Shown here one piece after another: positions 22,590-53,657 of a stretch of DNA of 64,000 nucleotides; position 1 is the first letter of the stretch; every line of letters begins with the position of its first letter. The DNA is from Bacilli bacterium. GTDB lineage: Bacteria; Bacillota_I; Bacilli_A; RF39; UBA660. The stretch spans positions 13,743 to 77,742 of the forward strand of contig JAFQXM010000007.1 in the NCBI GenBank assembly GCA_017406955.1. The letters run 5' to 3'. A program made the translations under genes and the position numbers. The notes under the pieces are model-generated. The model did not search any database, was not told the origin of the DNA, and saw only the letters and a list, made by a program, of their open reading frames with translations.

Positions 22590-22860
22590 TCTTTCTAATG
22601 TATTAATTACATAAAAAAATTATTATAAACATAAGGACGAAATGTTCGCGGTACCACCTTATTTTATAATAATTTATATTATACACTTAAATAGTTAACG
22701 CCTATCTACGATTATACCTACATATCGATATAATAGTTCAGAAGCCATAGTTTATAAATTATTTATGTTCACTTTCACCTAGCAGAACTCTCTAAGATAA
22801 ATAGTTTTTATAAACCTCTTCATCAATACATTTCAAATATGCATTAGTATAACACAATTT
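22590..22860 (-). promoter_or_regulatory. T-box riboswitch leader (Met specifier) upstream of metG
   Basis: Minus-strand AAGGUGGUACCGCG matches the T-box consensus NGGGUGGNACCGCG. AGAGA motif and candidate AUG specifier lie upstream within a 284-nt leader. Confidence 0.6.
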
Positions 22861-32762: not shown

Positions 32763-34439
32763 CTATTCAACTTCCACAATATCACCAAACAGATCAATCG
32801 TATCACTTGATATTATATCATTACTTTCTTCTTTATCAAAGACCTTCTCAGGTTCTTCTTTAACTTCAATTTTTTTACCATTTTTTAACATTTCTATATA
32901 ATTATTTTTATAATCATTCCACTCTTTATCACTGATAATAGCAAAATTCTTATTAGAATTAGTTATTTTATTGTAAATTTTTTCCATATTATCAAGATTT
33001 TCTAAATTTTGATCCACAATAGAATCATATTCATAACTCATAACAATACTATCATCATTAACTACTCTAAACTTAGAATTAAGTATTTCACATACTAAAT
33101 AACCTATTTTTTGATCAAAAGTATAATCATTTAACTTATTTAATTTTTCTTTTTCCTCATTTAATACCTTTTTATTAGCAGTAGCTAAAGTATTATTAAC
33201 TCTAACATCCATAATATCTTTAATATTTAATATTTTAGTTCCTTTTACTATTTTTTTGTTTTTTACTGGTTTTTTATCTTTTTCAACAGTTTTTTCTACT
33301 TTTTCTTCTTTTTTAGGTATTTTTTCTTTTATTTCCTGGGAAATATTCTCTTTTTCTTCTGTTTTTATTTCCCGGGAAATAATTTCACCACCATTTTCCT
33401 CTATAAATTTAAGTAATACCACTTCAATATATATTTTAGGATTACTACTATTTTTTATATCGAACATATTTTCGTTAATAATATTAACTAATTTTTCAAA
33501 ACATACACGCTTTTTATCATCTAACTCACTATTTTTCTTATCTAAATAGTAATTAACTATATTATCCCTTAAGTAATACATTATTTGAGATAATACTTGG
33601 ATTAAATTTTTTCCACTATTATTAATATCATTAATAATTTCTAATACTTTTTTTATATCTGATCCATATATAGAATCGCAAAATTCTTTTAATTCACTTT
33701 TTCTTAATAATTCGTTTATTTCTATATAATCATCATATGTAATCTTATCTGAATTATATGAAGATAATTTATCTAAACTACCAATAGAATCTCTCATTCC
33801 ACCATCAGAAGATAAGGCAATTTCTTCTAACACGTCATCTTCTACTTTAATTTTTTCAGACTTACATATTTTCTTAAGATTATTAACTATTTCATCGTTA
33901 GATATTCTTTTAAAATTAAAACATTGACATCTAGATATGATTGTTTCTGGTATTTTTTGCCTATTTGTTGTAGCAAGTATAAATATTGCATGTTCTGGAG
34001 GTTCTTCTAAAGTTTTCAATAACGCATTAAAAGCTCCAGTTGATAACATATGTACTTCATCGATTATATATACTTTATAAGTTAATTCTGCTGGTACTAA
34101 AGATATTTTATTACGTAATTCTCTTATTTCTTCTACTCCATTATTAGAAGCAGCATCCATTTCTATAATATCAACACATTCTTTTTCTATAGATTTCTTA
34201 CAATTATTACACTTTCCACAAGGATTACCATCTTTAGAATCAGTACAATTAACCGCTCTAGCAAATATCTTAGAAATTGTTGTTTTACCTGTACCTCTAG
34301 GACCAAAAAATAAATAAGCATGTCCATTTTTATGATTTTTAATAGTGTTTTTTAAAGTTTTTACTACTACATCCTGTCCTACTACATCATCAAAAGTTTG
34401 AGGTCTATATTTTCTATATAAAGCTTGATACATCATCAT
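32763..34439 (-). CDS. dnaX: DNA polymerase III subunit tau/gamma
   Basis: Walker A GPRGTGKTT, zinc module CGKCNNC, SRC motif; K/E-repeat linker. Confidence 0.9.
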   Translation of the reverse strand: MMMYQALYRKYRPQTFDDVVGQDVVVKTLKNTIKNHKNGHAYLFFGPRGTGKTTISKIFARAVNCTDSKDGNPCGKCNNCKKSIEKECVDIIEMDAASNNGVEEIRELRNKISLVPAELTYKVYIIDEVHMLSTGAFNALLKTLEEPPEHAIFILATTNRQKIPETIISRCQCFNFKRISNDEIVNNLKKICKSEKIKVEDDVLEEIALSSDGGMRDSIGSLDKLSSYNSDKITYDDYIEINELLRKSELKEFCDSIYGSDIKKVLEIINDINNSGKNLIQVLSQIMYYLRDNIVNYYLDKKNSELDDKKRVCFEKLVNIINENMFDIKNSSNPKIYIEVVLLKFIEENGGEIISREIKTEEKENISQEIKEKIPKKEEKVEKTVEKDKKPVKNKKIVKGTKILNIKDIMDVRVNNTLATANKKVLNEEKEKLNKLNDYTFDQKIGYLVCEILNSKFRVVNDDSIVMSYEYDSIVDQNLENLDNMEKIYNKITNSNKNFAIISDKEWNDYKNNYIEMLKNGKKIEVKEEPEKVFDKEESNDIISSDTIDLFGDIVEVE

Positions 34440-34944: not shown

Positions 34945-35030
34945 AAAATAAAACGTGCACATAAAAGTTAAATGTTAAGGCTGCTATCTTCCGATTCTGA
35001 CCTGGTTCCATCACTTTTATTGCACGTATA
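34945..35030 (-). ncRNA. ffs: small (4.5S-type) signal recognition particle RNA
   Basis: Minus-strand CCAGGUCAGAAUCGGAAGAUAGCAGCC matches SRP RNA domain IV (CCAGGUCAGGUCCGGAAGGAAGCAGCC). Closed by a 13-bp helix GUGCAAUAAAAGU/ACUUUUAUGUGCAC; U-rich tail. Confidence 0.7.
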
Positions 35031-35031
35031 T

Positions 35032-35060
35032 ATTTTATTATATTTATTATTATTTGTAAA
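35032..35060 (-). promoter_or_regulatory. sigma-A-type promoter for ffs
   Basis: Minus-strand TTTACA, 17-nt spacer, TAAAAT; ends about 7 nt before the SRP RNA 5' helix. Confidence 0.5.
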
Positions 35061-35070
35061 TATTTTTATT

Positions 35071-35088
35071 ATGTTTCATGTGGAACAT
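35071..35088. repeat. 18-bp imperfect palindrome copy 1 (ATGTTTCATGTGGAACAT)
   Basis: Dyad of half-site ATGTT(T/C)CAC; copy 1 of 3 in the gyrA-ffs intergenic region. Confidence 0.8.
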
Positions 35089-35111
35089 TAAAATATTATA
35101 TAAAACCATCT

Positions 35112-35129
35112 ATGTTTCACGTGGAACAT
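35112..35129. repeat. 18-bp imperfect palindrome copy 2 (ATGTTTCACGTGGAACAT)
   Basis: Identical to copy 3; CACGTG centre. Confidence 0.8.
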
Positions 35130-35180
35130 CACTTATTTTATTATTTATTTCCAAAAAAACATCAATTTTTTATTTAAATT

Positions 35181-35194
35181 ATTTCCCGGGAAAT
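35181..35194. repeat. perfect 14-bp palindrome ATTTCCCGGGAAAT
   Basis: Perfect dyad containing a CCCGGG core, unusual in this AT-rich DNA. Confidence 0.7.
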
Positions 35195-35214
35195 ATTTTT
35201 TATACTTTCTACTT

Positions 35215-35232
35215 ATGTTTCACGTGGAACAT
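35215..35232. repeat. 18-bp imperfect palindrome copy 3 (ATGTTTCACGTGGAACAT)
   Basis: Identical to copy 2; 13 nt from the gyrA stop. Confidence 0.8.
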
Positions 35233-35244
35233 AAAAAAAGAAGA

Positions 35245-40897: not shown

Positions 40898-40915
40898 ATA
40901 GTTAACACTAACTAT
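40898..40915 (-). terminator. terminator at comK-like gene 3' end
   Basis: ATAGTTA-ACAC-TAACTAT hairpin with an A-run on the plus strand. Confidence 0.45.
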
Positions 40916-41363
40916 TTTCTTTTATTTTTCTATTTCTCATAATTAAATCTAATCTAGATGCTCTAGAAATTTGATTTTCTACAGATCTAAATGATACAGG
41001 TACTATAATTTCTTTATCATTATTAAATATTATTTTAGTACTTGTAGAATCTATCCTTTTTATTCTTTTTACATGACCTAAAGAAATCCATGCACAATCT
41101 TCAGCTCTTGGTGAAGTCGTAGGAAAAAGTATAATATTATTAGATTCTTCTAATATTATAGGTACTTTATATTCAGCACCTAATATACTTTTAGCACTTT
41201 CTTTTCTACCATTATAAGAACTACCAAAGTACTTACAACTTTCTTCCATTATTTTAAATGGTTTTTCTTTAATAATATACCTTTCGTGATCTTCATAAAC
41301 TAAACTACTTTCTTCTGTGTTTGGTACGATTGCTAAAGTACCCTTTGTTACTTCATAATTCAT
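40908..41363 (-). CDS. comK: ComK-family competence transcription factor
   Basis: Four aligned blocks against B. subtilis ComK: YEVTKGTLAIVP; SCKYFGSSYNGRK; LFPTTSPRAEDCAWISLGHVK; SFRSVENQISRASRL. Confidence 0.65.
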   Translation of the reverse strand: MNYEVTKGTLAIVPNTEESSLVYEDHERYIIKEKPFKIMEESCKYFGSSYNGRKESAKSILGAEYKVPIILEESNNIILFPTTSPRAEDCAWISLGHVKRIKRIDSTSTKIIFNNDKEIIVPVSFRSVENQISRASRLDLIMRNRKIKENS

Positions 41364-42641: not shown

Positions 42642-42774
42642 TCCTTCTTTCTTATTTATTATTGTTTTATTTTTATTATTACTGTGGAAAAAGTTTAAAA
42701 TTATAATTTATCCTTATTTTATAAAGAAAATAATAAAATTTTATTGTGGATAAATATATGAATAATTTTATTTT
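42642..42774. promoter_or_regulatory. oriC downstream module: DnaA-box cluster plus AT-rich unwinding region (dnaA-dnaN intergenic)
   Basis: TGTGGAAAA (42683..42691), TTATCCTTA (42708..42716), perfect TGTGGATAA (42745..42753) within a >80% AT spacer. Confidence 0.7.
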
Positions 42775-44151
42775 TTACACAACACCTATATCTTTCTTTA
42801 ATTTTTCTATAATATTTTCTAAATCTTTATTTACCTTTATTTCTTTTTCTATTTTTTCACAAGAATGCATTACTGTAGTATGATCTTTCCCACCAAATTC
42901 TGTACCTATCTTAGGAAATGATTCACTAGTCATATTTCTACATAAATACATTGCAATCTGTCTTGGAAAAGAAATATTAGAACTTCTCTTTTTACTTTTA
43001 ATATCTTCAACAGATATTTGAAAGTAATCAGATACAATCTTTTGTATTCTATGGATATTATTTTTTTCTCCCATTCCTTTACTTATAAAGTCTTTCAAAG
43101 CTTCTATCGCAAGATCTAGAGTAATATCTGCACCACCCATTATAGTAGAATAAGCAATTAATCTAGTAATTGATCCTTCTAATTGTCTTACATCTGTACC
43201 TATATTAGAAGCAATATATTCAATAACATCATCAGGTATATCTTTTTCAAAATCTCCTGCAGCAATTTTTTTCTTAAGTATTTCAGTTCTTAAAGTAAAG
43301 TCAGGTGGAAATATATTAACTGTTAATCCCCAACAAAATCTTGTTCTTAAACGATCTTCTAATAATTTTAAATCATCTGGTGATCTATCTGATGAAATAA
43401 TAATTTGTTTACTATCATTATATAAAGAATTAAAAGTATGAAAAAATTCTTGTTGTGTTTGTGTTGCTCCTCCTAAAAATTGTATATCATCTATTATTAA
43501 AACATCTATATTTCTATACTTTTTCTTAAAAAAATCAACATAATTAAAGTTAGTTCCCTTATCATCCTTTTTATTTATACCTATAAAATCTTGTATAAAT
43601 TGATCACTGGTAACATATAAAACTTTCCTATTACTATTATTAGTAATATAATTACCTATAGCATGCATTAAATGTGTTTTACCAAGACCACTATTTCCAT
43701 ATATAAATAGAGGATTATACATATGACCAGGATTTTCTGCTACAGATAAAGCAGCAGCTTGTGCAAATTTATTAGTATCCCCTACTATAAAATTTTCAAA
43801 TGTATATTTACTTTTCAAATTAGTTTTTTCAAATTCTTGAGGTACTCCATCATTAATAACTTGATTTTTATTAATATTATCAGGAGGACTCTCATCTTTT
43901 TCAATCTCTTCATTTAATAAAAATATAAGTTCAAAATTAGTATTTGTAACATCATTTAATTTTTCTGTAATTAAATTATAATAATTATCAGATAAATGCT
44001 TTTTATGTATTGGCATTGGAACAATTATATAAGCTTTACCGTTTTCTAATTTATAAAGTTTCGTATCTTTAAACCATGTATCAAAAGACAGTGAAGTTAA
44101 TTCGTCTTTGATTTGTGATAAAAAATTAGACCATAAAATATCGACATTCAT
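42775..44151 (-). CDS. dnaA: chromosomal replication initiator DnaA
   Basis: Walker A GNSGLGKTHL, DnaA signature box, C-terminal HTH. ATG at 44151 preceded by GGGGAG; the track's TTG start at 44169 is an alternative. Confidence 0.95.
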   Translation of the reverse strand: MNVDILWSNFLSQIKDELTSLSFDTWFKDTKLYKLENGKAYIIVPMPIHKKHLSDNYYNLITEKLNDVTNTNFELIFLLNEEIEKDESPPDNINKNQVINDGVPQEFEKTNLKSKYTFENFIVGDTNKFAQAAALSVAENPGHMYNPLFIYGNSGLGKTHLMHAIGNYITNNSNRKVLYVTSDQFIQDFIGINKKDDKGTNFNYVDFFKKKYRNIDVLIIDDIQFLGGATQTQQEFFHTFNSLYNDSKQIIISSDRSPDDLKLLEDRLRTRFCWGLTVNIFPPDFTLRTEILKKKIAAGDFEKDIPDDVIEYIASNIGTDVRQLEGSITRLIAYSTIMGGADITLDLAIEALKDFISKGMGEKNNIHRIQKIVSDYFQISVEDIKSKKRSSNISFPRQIAMYLCRNMTSESFPKIGTEFGGKDHTTVMHSCEKIEKEIKVNKDLENIIEKLKKDIGVV

Positions 44152-44169
44152 TCCACCATCTCCCCACAA

Positions 44170-44470
44170 GATAAAAATTTCTTACCTAATATTTTATCTT
44201 AATTTGTGAAAAAAATAAACAAAAAATGGATAAAAAAATAAATCCACAAGTTATACACATACTTTTCCACTATAAAAATGATATAAAATAAGAAAAATAT
44301 AGAGTTTTCCACATTTTCCACAAATTTTAATTAACATTTGTTATTTTAATAATTAACATGCCTGTTAATTATGTGGATAAATAAAAATTATAAAAAAACC
44401 CCTATTTTAATTGACAAAACCCCTATATTATTATTATAATAATGTAGATTTATGTTTGGAGGTGGAGCAA
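44170..44470. promoter_or_regulatory. oriC upstream module: DnaA-box cluster with divergent dnaA and rpmH promoters
   Basis: AAATCCACA (44240..44248), TTTTCCACT (44263..44271), tandem TTTTCCACA x2 (44305..44322), perfect TGTGGATAA (44373..44381). rpmH promoter TTGACA (44411..44416), 18-nt spacer, TATAAT (44435..44440). Confidence 0.75.
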
Positions 44471-51932: not shown

Positions 51933-52000
51933 ATAAAAGCATTTAAAAAACTAATAATATTTGATACAATATATTAAGTAAAATTGAAATGGGTGATAAG

Positions 52001-52786
52001 ATGGGAAAGGTTATATCATTAGTAAATCAGAAAGGTGGAGTTGGAAAAACCACTACAAGCATAAATCTTTCTGCATCATTAGCAGTATTAGGAAAAAAAG
52101 TGTTATTAATAGATTTAGATCCACAAGGTAATACAACTACTGGTGTAGGTATAAATAAAGGTGATATAGAAAAAAGTGTATATGATGTATTAATAGGACA
52201 AAGTAGTATAGAAGAAGCAATGATTAAAACTAAATATAAAAATTTATATGTAATACCTGCAACTATTAATTTGGCAGGATTAGATATAGAATTAGTTGAA
52301 AAAAGCAAACAAGAATCAGGTTTTTTAAAAGGAGAACAATTAAAAACACATTTAAAAGATATAAAAGAACAATTTGATTTTATAATCATGGATTGTCCTC
52401 CATCATTAGGATTAATAACTACTAATGCTTTAGCGGCATCTAATTCAGTAATAATTCCAGTACAATGTGAATTTTTTGCATTAGAGGGTATAACACAATT
52501 ACTAAAGACAATAATGCTTGCACAAAAGGGATTAAATCCAACTTTAGATATAGAAGGAGTACTATTAACAATGCTTGATTCTAGAACTAATTTAGGTTTT
52601 GAAGTAGTAGAAGATATAAGAAAATTCTTTAAAGAAAAAGTTTATAATACAATAATTCCAAGACTAATTAGATTAACAGAAGCTCCATCGCATGGAGAAC
52701 CAATAATAGCATATGATCCAAAAAGCAGAGGATCAGAGGCATATATGAATTTAGCAAAGGAAGTGATTGAGAGAAATGGAAAATAA
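52001..52786 (+). CDS. soj: chromosome partitioning ATPase ParA/Soj
   Basis: Deviant Walker A KGGVGKTT; MGKVISLVNQ start aligns with Soj MGKIIAITNQ. Confidence 0.9.
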   Translation: MGKVISLVNQKGGVGKTTTSINLSASLAVLGKKVLLIDLDPQGNTTTGVGINKGDIEKSVYDVLIGQSSIEEAMIKTKYKNLYVIPATINLAGLDIELVEKSKQESGFLKGEQLKTHLKDIKEQFDFIIMDCPPSLGLITTNALAASNSVIIPVQCEFFALEGITQLLKTIMLAQKGLNPTLDIEGVLLTMLDSRTNLGFEVVEDIRKFFKEKVYNTIIPRLIRLTEAPSHGEPIIAYDPKSRGSEAYMNLAKEVIERNGK

Positions 52787-53657
52787 AAGAAGAGCTCTAG
52801 GTAGAGGATTAGAAGAATTATTTAACAATGAACCACTTGCTTATGATAAAATGGAAGAGAAAATATTAACAGAGACACCAAAAGAAGAAATAACTAAAGT
52901 AAAGTTATCAGATTTAAGAAGCAATCCATATCAACCAAGACAAGTATTTGATCAAACAGCGTTAGAAGAATTATCAAATTCTATTAAAGAACACGGAGTA
53001 TTCCAACCAATTATTATAAAAAAGAGTATTAAAGGATATGAAATAATAGCAGGTGAAAGAAGAGTAAAAGCTTCTAAAATGGCAGGATTAGAAGAAATAC
53101 CGGCAATTATTAGAGATTTCACAGATGAAGAAATGATGGAAATAGCTCTACTTGAAAATTTACAAAGAGAGAATTTAAGTGCTATAGAAGAAGCTAACGC
53201 TTACAAAAAATTATTAGAACAATTAGAATTAACTCAAGAAAACTTAGCTAAAAGATTAGGAAAAAGTAGAAGTCATATAACTAATATGATAGGATTACTT
53301 ACTTTGCCAGAAGATATTCAAAAAGAAATATCTTTAAAAAAAATATCTATGGGACATGCTAGAGTATTAAGTAAATTAGATGATGAAGAACAACAAAGAA
53401 TTTTAACAAAAAAAGTAATTAAAGAAGATTTAAGTGTTAGACAACTAGAAGACTTAACAAAATCTAAAGAGAAATATATAAGAACACACAAAATAAAAAC
53501 AAAAAAGAATAACGAATATAAATATTTAGAGGACGACTTAACAGAAAAATTAGGAACAAAAGTAAAAATAAAATCAAACAAATTAGAAATAAAATTTGTA
53601 AATAACAATGATTTAAATAGGTTATTAGAGATAATGAATTTAAATATTAAAAATTAA
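52776..53657 (+). CDS. spo0J: chromosome partitioning protein ParB/Spo0J
   Basis: ParB box IAGERRVKAS and HTH. ATG 52776 overlaps the soj stop; TTG 52767 is an alternative. Confidence 0.85.
   Translation: MENKRRALGRGLEELFNNEPLAYDKMEEKILTETPKEEITKVKLSDLRSNPYQPRQVFDQTALEELSNSIKEHGVFQPIIIKKSIKGYEIIAGERRVKASKMAGLEEIPAIIRDFTDEEMMEIALLENLQRENLSAIEEANAYKKLLEQLELTQENLAKRLGKSRSHITNMIGLLTLPEDIQKEISLKKISMGHARVLSKLDDEEQQRILTKKVIKEDLSVRQLEDLTKSKEKYIRTHKIKTKKNNEYKYLEDDLTEKLGTKVKIKSNKLEIKFVNNNDLNRLLEIMNLNIKN

Follow-up and report, generated by a model that had tools for sequence, protein, structure and literature searches.

Three parS sites and an embedded Noc-type site in the gyrA-ffs spacer of an uncultured Bacilli bacterium: a predicted origin-proximal centromere

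Introduction

ParB and its paralog Noc are a textbook example of how binding specificity diverges after a gene duplication, the sites at which they dock, parS and the Noc-binding site (NBS), differing by two bases per half-site. In characterised systems, the ParB complex also loads SMC at parS. Among plasmids, the F-plasmid centromere sopC consists of a 43-bp unit repeated twelve times, and SopB binds a 16-bp inverted repeat in each unit. Here we analyse a 64-kb stretch of the genome of an uncultured Bacilli bacterium (the window in what follows), in which the spacer between gyrA and ffs, the gene of the small signal recognition particle (SRP) RNA, holds four palindromes that, by their sequence, are three parS sites and one NBS. 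We compare it with stretches of up to ~22 kb from related genomes.

The consensus of parS is TGTTTCAC-GTGAAACA and that of the NBS is TATTTCCC-GGGAAATA, and ParB and Noc discriminate sharply between the two (PMC7383237). As for the residues involved, R173 and G201 are invariant in ParB, and Q173 and R201 together with one lysine, at either 179 or 184, are enough for NBS specificity (PMC7383237). Dimers of both proteins nucleate at their palindromes, close into a clamp in the state bound to cytidine triphosphate (CTP), and slide to the adjacent DNA (PMC8429893). In Noc, a 10-residue amphipathic membrane helix at the N-terminus is required for nucleoid occlusion (PMC8429893, PMC7333895). Clusters of parS are common, with 1 to 23 sites per genome (reviewed in PMC7333895), and the NBS of B. 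subtilis and S. aureus have been described as scattered (PMC7383237).

How does the present locus compare with these systems? It resembles the parS/ParB (Spo0J) centromere of B. subtilis and other bacteria in the 16-bp palindrome TGTTNCACGTGAAACA, in the clustering of the sites and their proximity to the origin, in a parA-parB pair next to rsmG, and in a ParB with the GERR motif and R173/G201. Likewise, it resembles the Noc/NBS system of B. subtilis and S. aureus in an identical NBS, in a paralog gene placed between rsmG and parA, in a protein with Q173, K179, R201 and the CTP motifs GERR and ENLQR, and in single NBS near the origin, for example in dnaX. That said, known parS sets extend over tens or hundreds of kb, whereas in this clade the sites in the searched regions are confined to the gyrA-ffs interval and sometimes to that between tadA and dnaX, and, unlike known chromosomal parS, they are amplified in many relatives as tandem units of 35-250 bp. 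The NBS, in turn, is concentrated inside the parS cluster, unlike in the Noc system, and the Noc paralog differs from Noc of B. subtilis and S. aureus in having no 10-residue helix, a length of ~460 aa with a 200-aa acidic linker, and a score below the family cutoff. Finally, the arrays of this clade are similar to plasmid tandem-repeat centromeres such as sopC, in that head-to-tail units each carry a palindromic site for a ParB-family protein, but they are chromosomal, use the chromosomal parS sequence and, in many relatives, hold two sites for two paralogs per unit.

Results

Sequence and position of the four palindromes

A first-pass annotation of the window had pointed to three near-identical palindromes and a perfect 14-bp palindrome upstream of ffs, and a direct check of the window sequence finds all four where it had placed them. 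The three 19-mer copies, TATGTTTCA(C/T)GTGGAACAT, i.e. TATGTTTCAYGTGGAACAT, together span 163 bp, and the 14-mer, located between copies 2 and 3, is the inner part of a 16-bp palindrome (Table 1). All four sites are contained in the 213 bp that separate the gyrA stop codon from the small SRP RNA gene. Their centres are ~48, 89, 156 and 192 nt upstream of the SRP RNA 5' end, in good accord with the positions of -45, -85 and -190 given earlier for the three copies relative to the ffs start; copy 3 does lie just past the gyrA stop codon, at a distance of 12 nt rather than the 13 nt of the annotation.

As to their identity, the first-pass annotation had concluded that the motif matches no known box. 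This was mistaken, as both motifs, which were missing from its list of regulators, are those described as parS and NBS in PMC7383237. Namely, copies 2 and 3 share a 16-bp core that on the minus strand reads TGTTCCACGTGAAACA, the exact chromosomal parS consensus, copy 1 departs from it by one mismatch, and TATTTCCCGGGAAATA agrees with the published NBS consensus at 16 of 16 positions. We refer to the copies as parS-1, parS-2 and parS-3, counted from ffs towards gyrA.

Such a set is hardly expected by chance. With up to 2 mismatches allowed, the parS pattern matches in the 64 kb at these three places only, giving 6 strand matches (3 sites) where 0.07 are expected, and the observed count was reached in 0 of 100 shuffles. 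The 14-mer pattern has 3 matches against 0.14 expected, the other two being inside dnaX. The first-pass annotation was right in that dyad-symmetric binding sites for dimeric DNA-binding proteins are arrayed here in a non-random way. Moreover, the array is close to the origin of replication: the GC skew changes sign at ~44 kb in the window, and the site cluster lies 7.4-9.3 kb from the DnaA-box clusters and this switch.

The layout of the window, parS-NBS-parS-parS (P-N-P-P), recurs in its two nearest relatives, L207 and L208, whose DnaA is 97-98% identical. Their spacers are 90% identical to that of the window overall, and the parS cores hardly vary, the window and L207 each showing a single change. 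In particular, parS-3 is identical in both, and the NBS is kept at the same place in L208 and, with one mismatch, in L207. At the position of parS-1 both relatives read CACGTG, and for this reason the T found there in the window is taken as a derived change. Finally, where the window has a decayed NBS, L207 and L208 carry a second, degenerate NBS, TATTACCTGGGAAATA.

Table 1. Features of the window, with positions counted from the first base of the 64-kb stretch
Feature	Position	Strand	Remarks
parS-3, nearest gyrA	35216..35231		TGTTTCACGTGGAACA, minus strand TGTTCCACGTGAAACA; 0 mismatches; extended palindrome 35214-35232, centre CACGTG
NBS	35180..35195		TATTTCCCGGGAAATA; consensus match 16/16; includes the 14-mer ATTTCCCGGGAAAT, 35181-35194
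parS-2	35113..35128		TGTTTCACGTGGAACA; minus-strand match, 0 mismatches; conserved in L207 and L208; 19-mer 35111-35129, centre CACGTG
parS-1, nearest ffs	35072..35087		TGTTTCATGTGGAACA; one mismatch, in the central CG; 19-mer 35070-35088, centre CATGTG
Decayed NBS	35146-35161		only the TATTTCC half left, then A7
ParB (Spo0J)	52767..53657	+	TIGR00180, 208 bits
Noc-like ParB paralog, 463 aa	50515..51906	+	best structures Noc 7nfu (224 bits) and 7ng0 (221 bits); Spo0J 171 bits
ParA (Soj) ATPase, partner of ParB	51989..52786	+	ParA/MinD superfamily match
oriC	42683..44380		DnaA-box clusters flanking dnaA: 42683-42753 and 44251-44380
dnaA	42775-44169
gyrA stop codon	35245-35247	-
Terminator-like stem-loop	35233..35256	-	AT-rich, overlaps the gyrA stop codon; 8-bp stem, AUAA loop, then U7
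ffs, small SRP RNA gene	34946..35031	-	Rfam RF00169, 57 bits against a gathering score of 40
Promoter-like site for SRP RNA	35032..35060	-	TTTACA, 17 nt, TAAAAT; 10/12 consensus positions
dnaX	32763-34439	-
NBS core, second perfect, inside dnaX	33367..33380		read I-S-R-E-I, with a CGG arginine codon
NBS-like site, inside dnaX	33331..33344		one mismatch; read I-S-Q-E-I; 36 nt from the perfect one
151-aa open reading frame	40908-41363	-	between dnaN and recF
T-box leader	22630-22835	-	Rfam RF00230, 109 bits

The predicted readers of the two sites

Across oriC from the cluster, the genes follow in the order mnmG, rsmG, noc-like, parA, parB, and the order rsmG, noc-like, parA, parB is common to L205, L206, L207 and L209. 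The ParB encoded here, at a distance of 17 kb from the parS cluster and on the opposite side of oriC, has B. subtilis Spo0J (6sdk) as its best match among solved structures, with 222 bits compared to 164 bits for Noc. Its specificity residues, R-M-T-G, are of the RxxG parS type, and it carries the motifs GERR (GERRVKAS) and, in the N-terminal part, KRRALGRGLEELF.

The second ParB-family protein starts with a GTG behind the ribosome-binding site GAGGGTGAT; this start was taken from an identical database protein of 463 aa, P0001, which NCBI names 'ParB/RepB/Spo0J family partition protein'. Its specificity residues are Q-K-S-R, and Q-K-x-R is present in 119 of 120 Noc-like homologs (433-510 aa, P0001-P0120), with x being G or S in 112. 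The CTP-binding-domain motifs GERR and ENLQR are retained by both ParB and the Noc-like protein, and in the latter they read GERRYKAS and ENLQRKNL; the Noc-like protein has, in other words, both a ParB-type CTP-binding N-terminal domain and the rsmG-parA gene position. Given a ParB with R-M-T-G and a paralog with Q-K-S-R, each of the two sites has a reader of the expected type encoded in the window. The parS identification is thus accompanied by a consensus palindrome, proximity to the origin, a cognate ParB, and syntenic conservation with absence from flanking DNA, and that of the NBS by a consensus palindrome and a matching protein that has Q173, R201 and one of the two lysines (179 or 184).

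Is the paralog a Noc in the full sense? Its N-terminus, MNEEQKEDVTY, is short, 19 residues preceding NRFQPR, and its start aligns with approximately residue 20 of Geobacillus Noc 7nfu. In this alignment, the 10-residue amphipathic membrane-targeting helix has no counterpart in the Noc-like protein, and a short acidic N-terminus with the 19-residue spacing is found in 110 of the 120 homologs. The DNA-binding domain is followed by a linker of ~200 aa with 55 D/E compared to 19 K/R, in which the short motifs PKFINFGEID, SDLDSLLNI, KFLTPAESIV and DYFKTPDLI are conserved, and by a conserved C-terminal domain of ~50 aa (YTIQ..AVE..R.LV..LN.H....EEMNF.KSYQIIIKL.K). Because of the absent helix, the short N-terminus, the acidic linker and the score below the cutoff, we file the protein as Noc-derived and its site as NBS-type. 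As far as can be judged from its sequence, it is a Noc-derived paralog, which falls short of a proven nucleoid-occlusion factor.

Conservation in related genomes

The relatives are 80 species-level loci, retrieved with GyrA at identities of 69-89%, which come from metagenome-assembled genomes (MAGs) of uncultured gut Bacilli, including those of Clostridium sp. CAG:417 and Candidatus Onthousia, two taxa that NCBI assigns to Bacilli incertae sedis. Sites were counted with at most 1 mismatch in the 3-kb zone that follows gyrA, which adds up to 172 kb, and in the remaining 1.215 Mb. There are 285 parS sites in the zone after gyrA compared to 0 in the remainder and 0 in shuffles of the zone, and 125 NBS in the zone compared to 37 in the remainder, which amounts to an enrichment of ~24-fold per base. 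In 56 loci the sequence continues downstream for 1.5 kb or more; parS is present there in 47 of these, at least two parS in 45, and parS together with NBS in 33. In the logo of 284 related sites, parS is 95-100% invariant apart from the known degenerate position, and the NBS core is 84-100% invariant across its 125 copies. The downstream neighbour is the SRP RNA gene in 6 of the 6 relatives tested, and L205 and L206 each combine, on one contig, the array with genes for a ParB (RMTG) and a Noc-like protein (QK[GS]R). DnaA homologs could be paired with the GyrA loci in only 4 cases, which narrowed the set of genomes to choose from. The comparison with related species that the first-pass annotation had proposed thus shows the spacer motifs to be kept across related loci. 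The annotation had also held that confinement to this locus would speak against its proposal; the motifs are indeed confined, yet this is what a centromere predicts.

These data bear directly on the possibility that the palindromes are operators of a dimeric transcription factor controlling the ffs promoter, which was the earlier proposal. The centre of parS-1, ~48 nt upstream of the SRP RNA 5' end, is directly upstream of a -35-like hexamer, and bound or spreading ParB could have an incidental effect on ffs transcription. However, instead of a fixed number at a fixed position, the relatives have 1-11 copies in spacers of ~250 to ~1900 bp, with the last site 40-104 bp from ffs. What is more, in some cases the site closest to ffs is an NBS, there are further arrays in the tadA-dnaX interval, and the sites match parS and NBS exactly, with cognate proteins encoded nearby. 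We regard the operator reading as highly improbable.

The first-pass annotation had alternatively suggested hairpins at the end of the gyrBA transcript, similar to repetitive extragenic palindromic (REP) elements, and the palindromes could also be read as stabilisers of its 3' end. Palindromes are certainly able to form hairpins, and the RNA of the spacer folds somewhat better than shuffled sequences (z-score -2.86). In the predicted fold, however, the parS copies pair with each other and form no local hairpins, and the stem-loop with its U7 at the gyrA stop codon precedes parS-3, so that much of the transcript may end before the sites. This stem-loop appears in both the minimum-free-energy and the centroid folds. 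A consensus scan, which needs at least 3 G-C pairs, finds no terminator in the spacer, and we infer from the thermodynamic fold that the AT-rich hairpin may act as one. In addition, the 95-100% invariance of the core over 284 sites comes with no compensatory change; positions 5 and 12 are the only pair that varies, and their bases fail to complement each other in 57 of 244 exact sites, C/A accounting for 23 of these. Finally, 0 of 285 copies are outside the locus, unlike dispersed REP elements. With neither dispersal nor covariation to be seen, we give the hairpin reading practically no credence.

Alternating tandem arrays

Many relatives have a spacer built as a true tandem repeat with one parS and one NBS per unit, the unit being 126 bp in L034 (5.6 copies, 87% identity) and 70 bp in L001 (5.3 copies, 90% identity), and between 35 and 250 bp overall. 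The order of sites is often strictly alternating, as in L034 (PNPNPNPNPNPN), L041 (NPNPNPNPNPNPNPNN) and L033 (PNPNPNPNP), and the alternation reaches 16 sites in L041. Other relatives have pure parS runs with no NBS, and in some the arrays lie between tadA and dnaX. The number of sites also differs at short distance: there are 3 parS copies in the window compared to 5 in a relative with 89% identical GyrA. The array of the window is a minimal version of this parS-NBS arrangement.

A metagenome scan, in which an NBS within 8-38 bp of a parS was the sole criterion, returned at least 120 stretches. Among the matches listed, 116 of the 120 stretches have a gyrA, tadA or dnaX context, the GC content is 19-31% in almost all, and there is one clear exception, L166, which comes from a different organism with 49% GC and in which the region upstream of parA-parB holds four parS and one NBS. 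From this context, we conclude that the juxtaposition of parS and NBS is a hallmark of one clade and one locus. In the literature, we found no description of alternating or tandem parS-NBS arrays or of helix-less Noc homologs, which may still be published somewhere.

Two other origins of the pattern were considered. That the NBS arose from parS within the array is not supported, the flanks of parS and NBS units having an identity of 0.39 compared to a background of 0.35 and to 0.57-0.60 for like sites. A CRISPR array is rejected, as there are no unique spacers and whole units repeat, inter-site sequence included, at 87-90% identity.

A more serious question is whether only parS is functional, the NBS being a passenger in the repeat unit, or weakly bound by ParB, and the alternation a by-product of slippage. 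The units are indeed tandem repeats of 87-90% identity, and alternation follows automatically when one repeat unit holds both sites; moreover, many relatives have pure parS runs and no NBS, and the second NBS of the nearest relatives is decayed in the window. Against this, the NBS core stays 84-100% invariant over 125 copies in an AT-rich background in which CCCGGG would decay quickly, single NBS are kept at conserved places outside the arrays, such as that inside dnaX with its CGG codon, and Q, K and R are retained at the specificity positions in 119 of 120 Noc-like homologs. Weak binding by ParB is also at odds with the sharp discrimination of ParB and Noc between the two sites (PMC7383237). 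The passenger reading is harder to exclude than the operator and hairpin readings, and we consider it unlikely on balance.

Some observations on the arrays and on the NBS outside them may be added. Many MAG contigs (L002, L003, L018, L047, L062, L064 and others) end 60-250 bp after gyrA, at the start of the array; the arrays probably break short-read assemblies, and the array sizes seen in MAGs may be underestimates. L056 has NBS but no parS; it contains, at +19 and +2022 from the end of gyrA, hybrid sites such as TATTTCACGTGAAATA, with an NBS-type base at one variable position and a parS-type base at the other. Single perfect NBS recur in many of the loci L001-L080 at approximately -9.2 kb, -11.3 kb and +6.5 to +7.5 kb from the end of gyrA, and one such recurrent class is near the oriC region upstream of dnaA; the window has none at these offsets. 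For Noc of S. aureus, an effect on replication initiation is reported, together with small chromatin immunoprecipitation peaks around dnaA (PMC5540599).

Neighbouring features

The two NBS-type sites inside dnaX are read in the same frame and fall in the variable linker of DnaX. The ISREI frame is used by 13 of the 15 NBS sites in the dnaX region of relatives, and this reuse suggests selection at the DNA level inside the coding region. The promoter-like site of the SRP RNA, for which the basis is the consensus match, is kept in L207 and L208. Two further features lie in the rest of the window. The 151-aa open reading frame has a syntenic gene in relatives at the dnaN-recF position, which is occupied in 9 of 9 DnaA-anchored origin regions (L201-L209) and where the product carries the ComK-family Pfam domain PF06338; this is an unusual location for a ComK-like gene. 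The T-box leader is unrelated to the parS/NBS cluster.

Discussion

Taken together, we consider it very likely that the gyrA-ffs spacer is an origin-proximal centromere, on which ParB clamps load in a CTP-dependent manner and in which a loading site for the Noc-like clamp is embedded. This reading is carried by what is observed, namely the site sequences, the cognate specificity residues, the proximity to the origin and the strict conservation of position throughout the clade. If the ParB of the window acts as characterised ones do, its dimers would load at the three parS sites, 17 kb from its gene; each dimer would nucleate at parS, bind CTP, close to a clamp and slide onto the flanking DNA, with adjacent parS copies raising the loading rate. 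The partition complex would then work with ParA. The CCCGGG palindrome, in turn, would be the loading site for a second clamp of the ParB family, the Noc-like protein, whose gene is beside parAB. Since 36 bp separate the centre of the NBS from parS-3 and 67 bp separate it from parS-2, the clamps would have to share the same DNA, both paralogs being loaded ~36 bp apart on a common few hundred bp.

That said, several points weigh against this picture or limit it. First, parS-1 is substituted in its central CG, which may affect affinity. Second, with 297.3 bits the Noc-like protein scores under the cutoff of 315 for TIGR04285, the NCBIfam model of Noc, and it has S rather than K at 184, so that NBS binding is predicted from four residues. 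Third, the binding itself, its CTP-dependent spreading and any coupling between ParB and the Noc-like protein in this organism are what we infer by analogy with other systems. Fourth, the loci that have no parS form a subclade of their own (L010, L011, L012, L015, L021 and L022; L201-L203), with DnaA 55-59% identical to that of the window, and in it neither type of site occurs after gyrA or within the 21 kb around oriC, where the 10-kb flanks taken from DnaA end at or before the first ParB-family gene. The arrangement in the gyrA spacer is therefore not universal, and one member of the subclade, L201, keeps a 717-aa ParB-family protein with a Noc-like N-terminus beside rsmG. Finally, our search covers 64 kb of this genome, and further parS sites may be present elsewhere in it.

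One can go a step further and propose that this clade of gut Bacilli, which are uncultured and have small genomes, has a two-protein centromere, in which one array of alternating parS and NBS serves to load both ParB and a Noc-derived clamp. In this case, the paralog, having lost the helix and gained an acidic, motif-bearing linker, would be a second centromere-binding protein, for example an organiser or anchor of the origin or a modulator of ParB loading, and not a nucleoid-occlusion factor. We put this proposal forward tentatively and hold it to be possible rather than probable. Clustered parS near the origin is a known arrangement; the alternating array and a helix-less Noc paralog of ~460 aa with an acidic linker look like something new.

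As far as the window is concerned, the result is mainly a correct annotation, that of a centromere with a Noc-type site in an uncultured organism, and the assembly breaks just after gyrA appear to matter for closing these genomes. More generally, the clade sets both sites side by side, and its Noc paralog is without the element that defines nucleoid occlusion. It thereby offers a natural system for asking whether paralogous CTP clamps on the same DNA cooperate, compete or block each other, what the role of a Noc-type protein without membrane binding is, and how a centromere can change its copy number as fast as is suggested by 3 compared to 5 parS at 89% GyrA identity.

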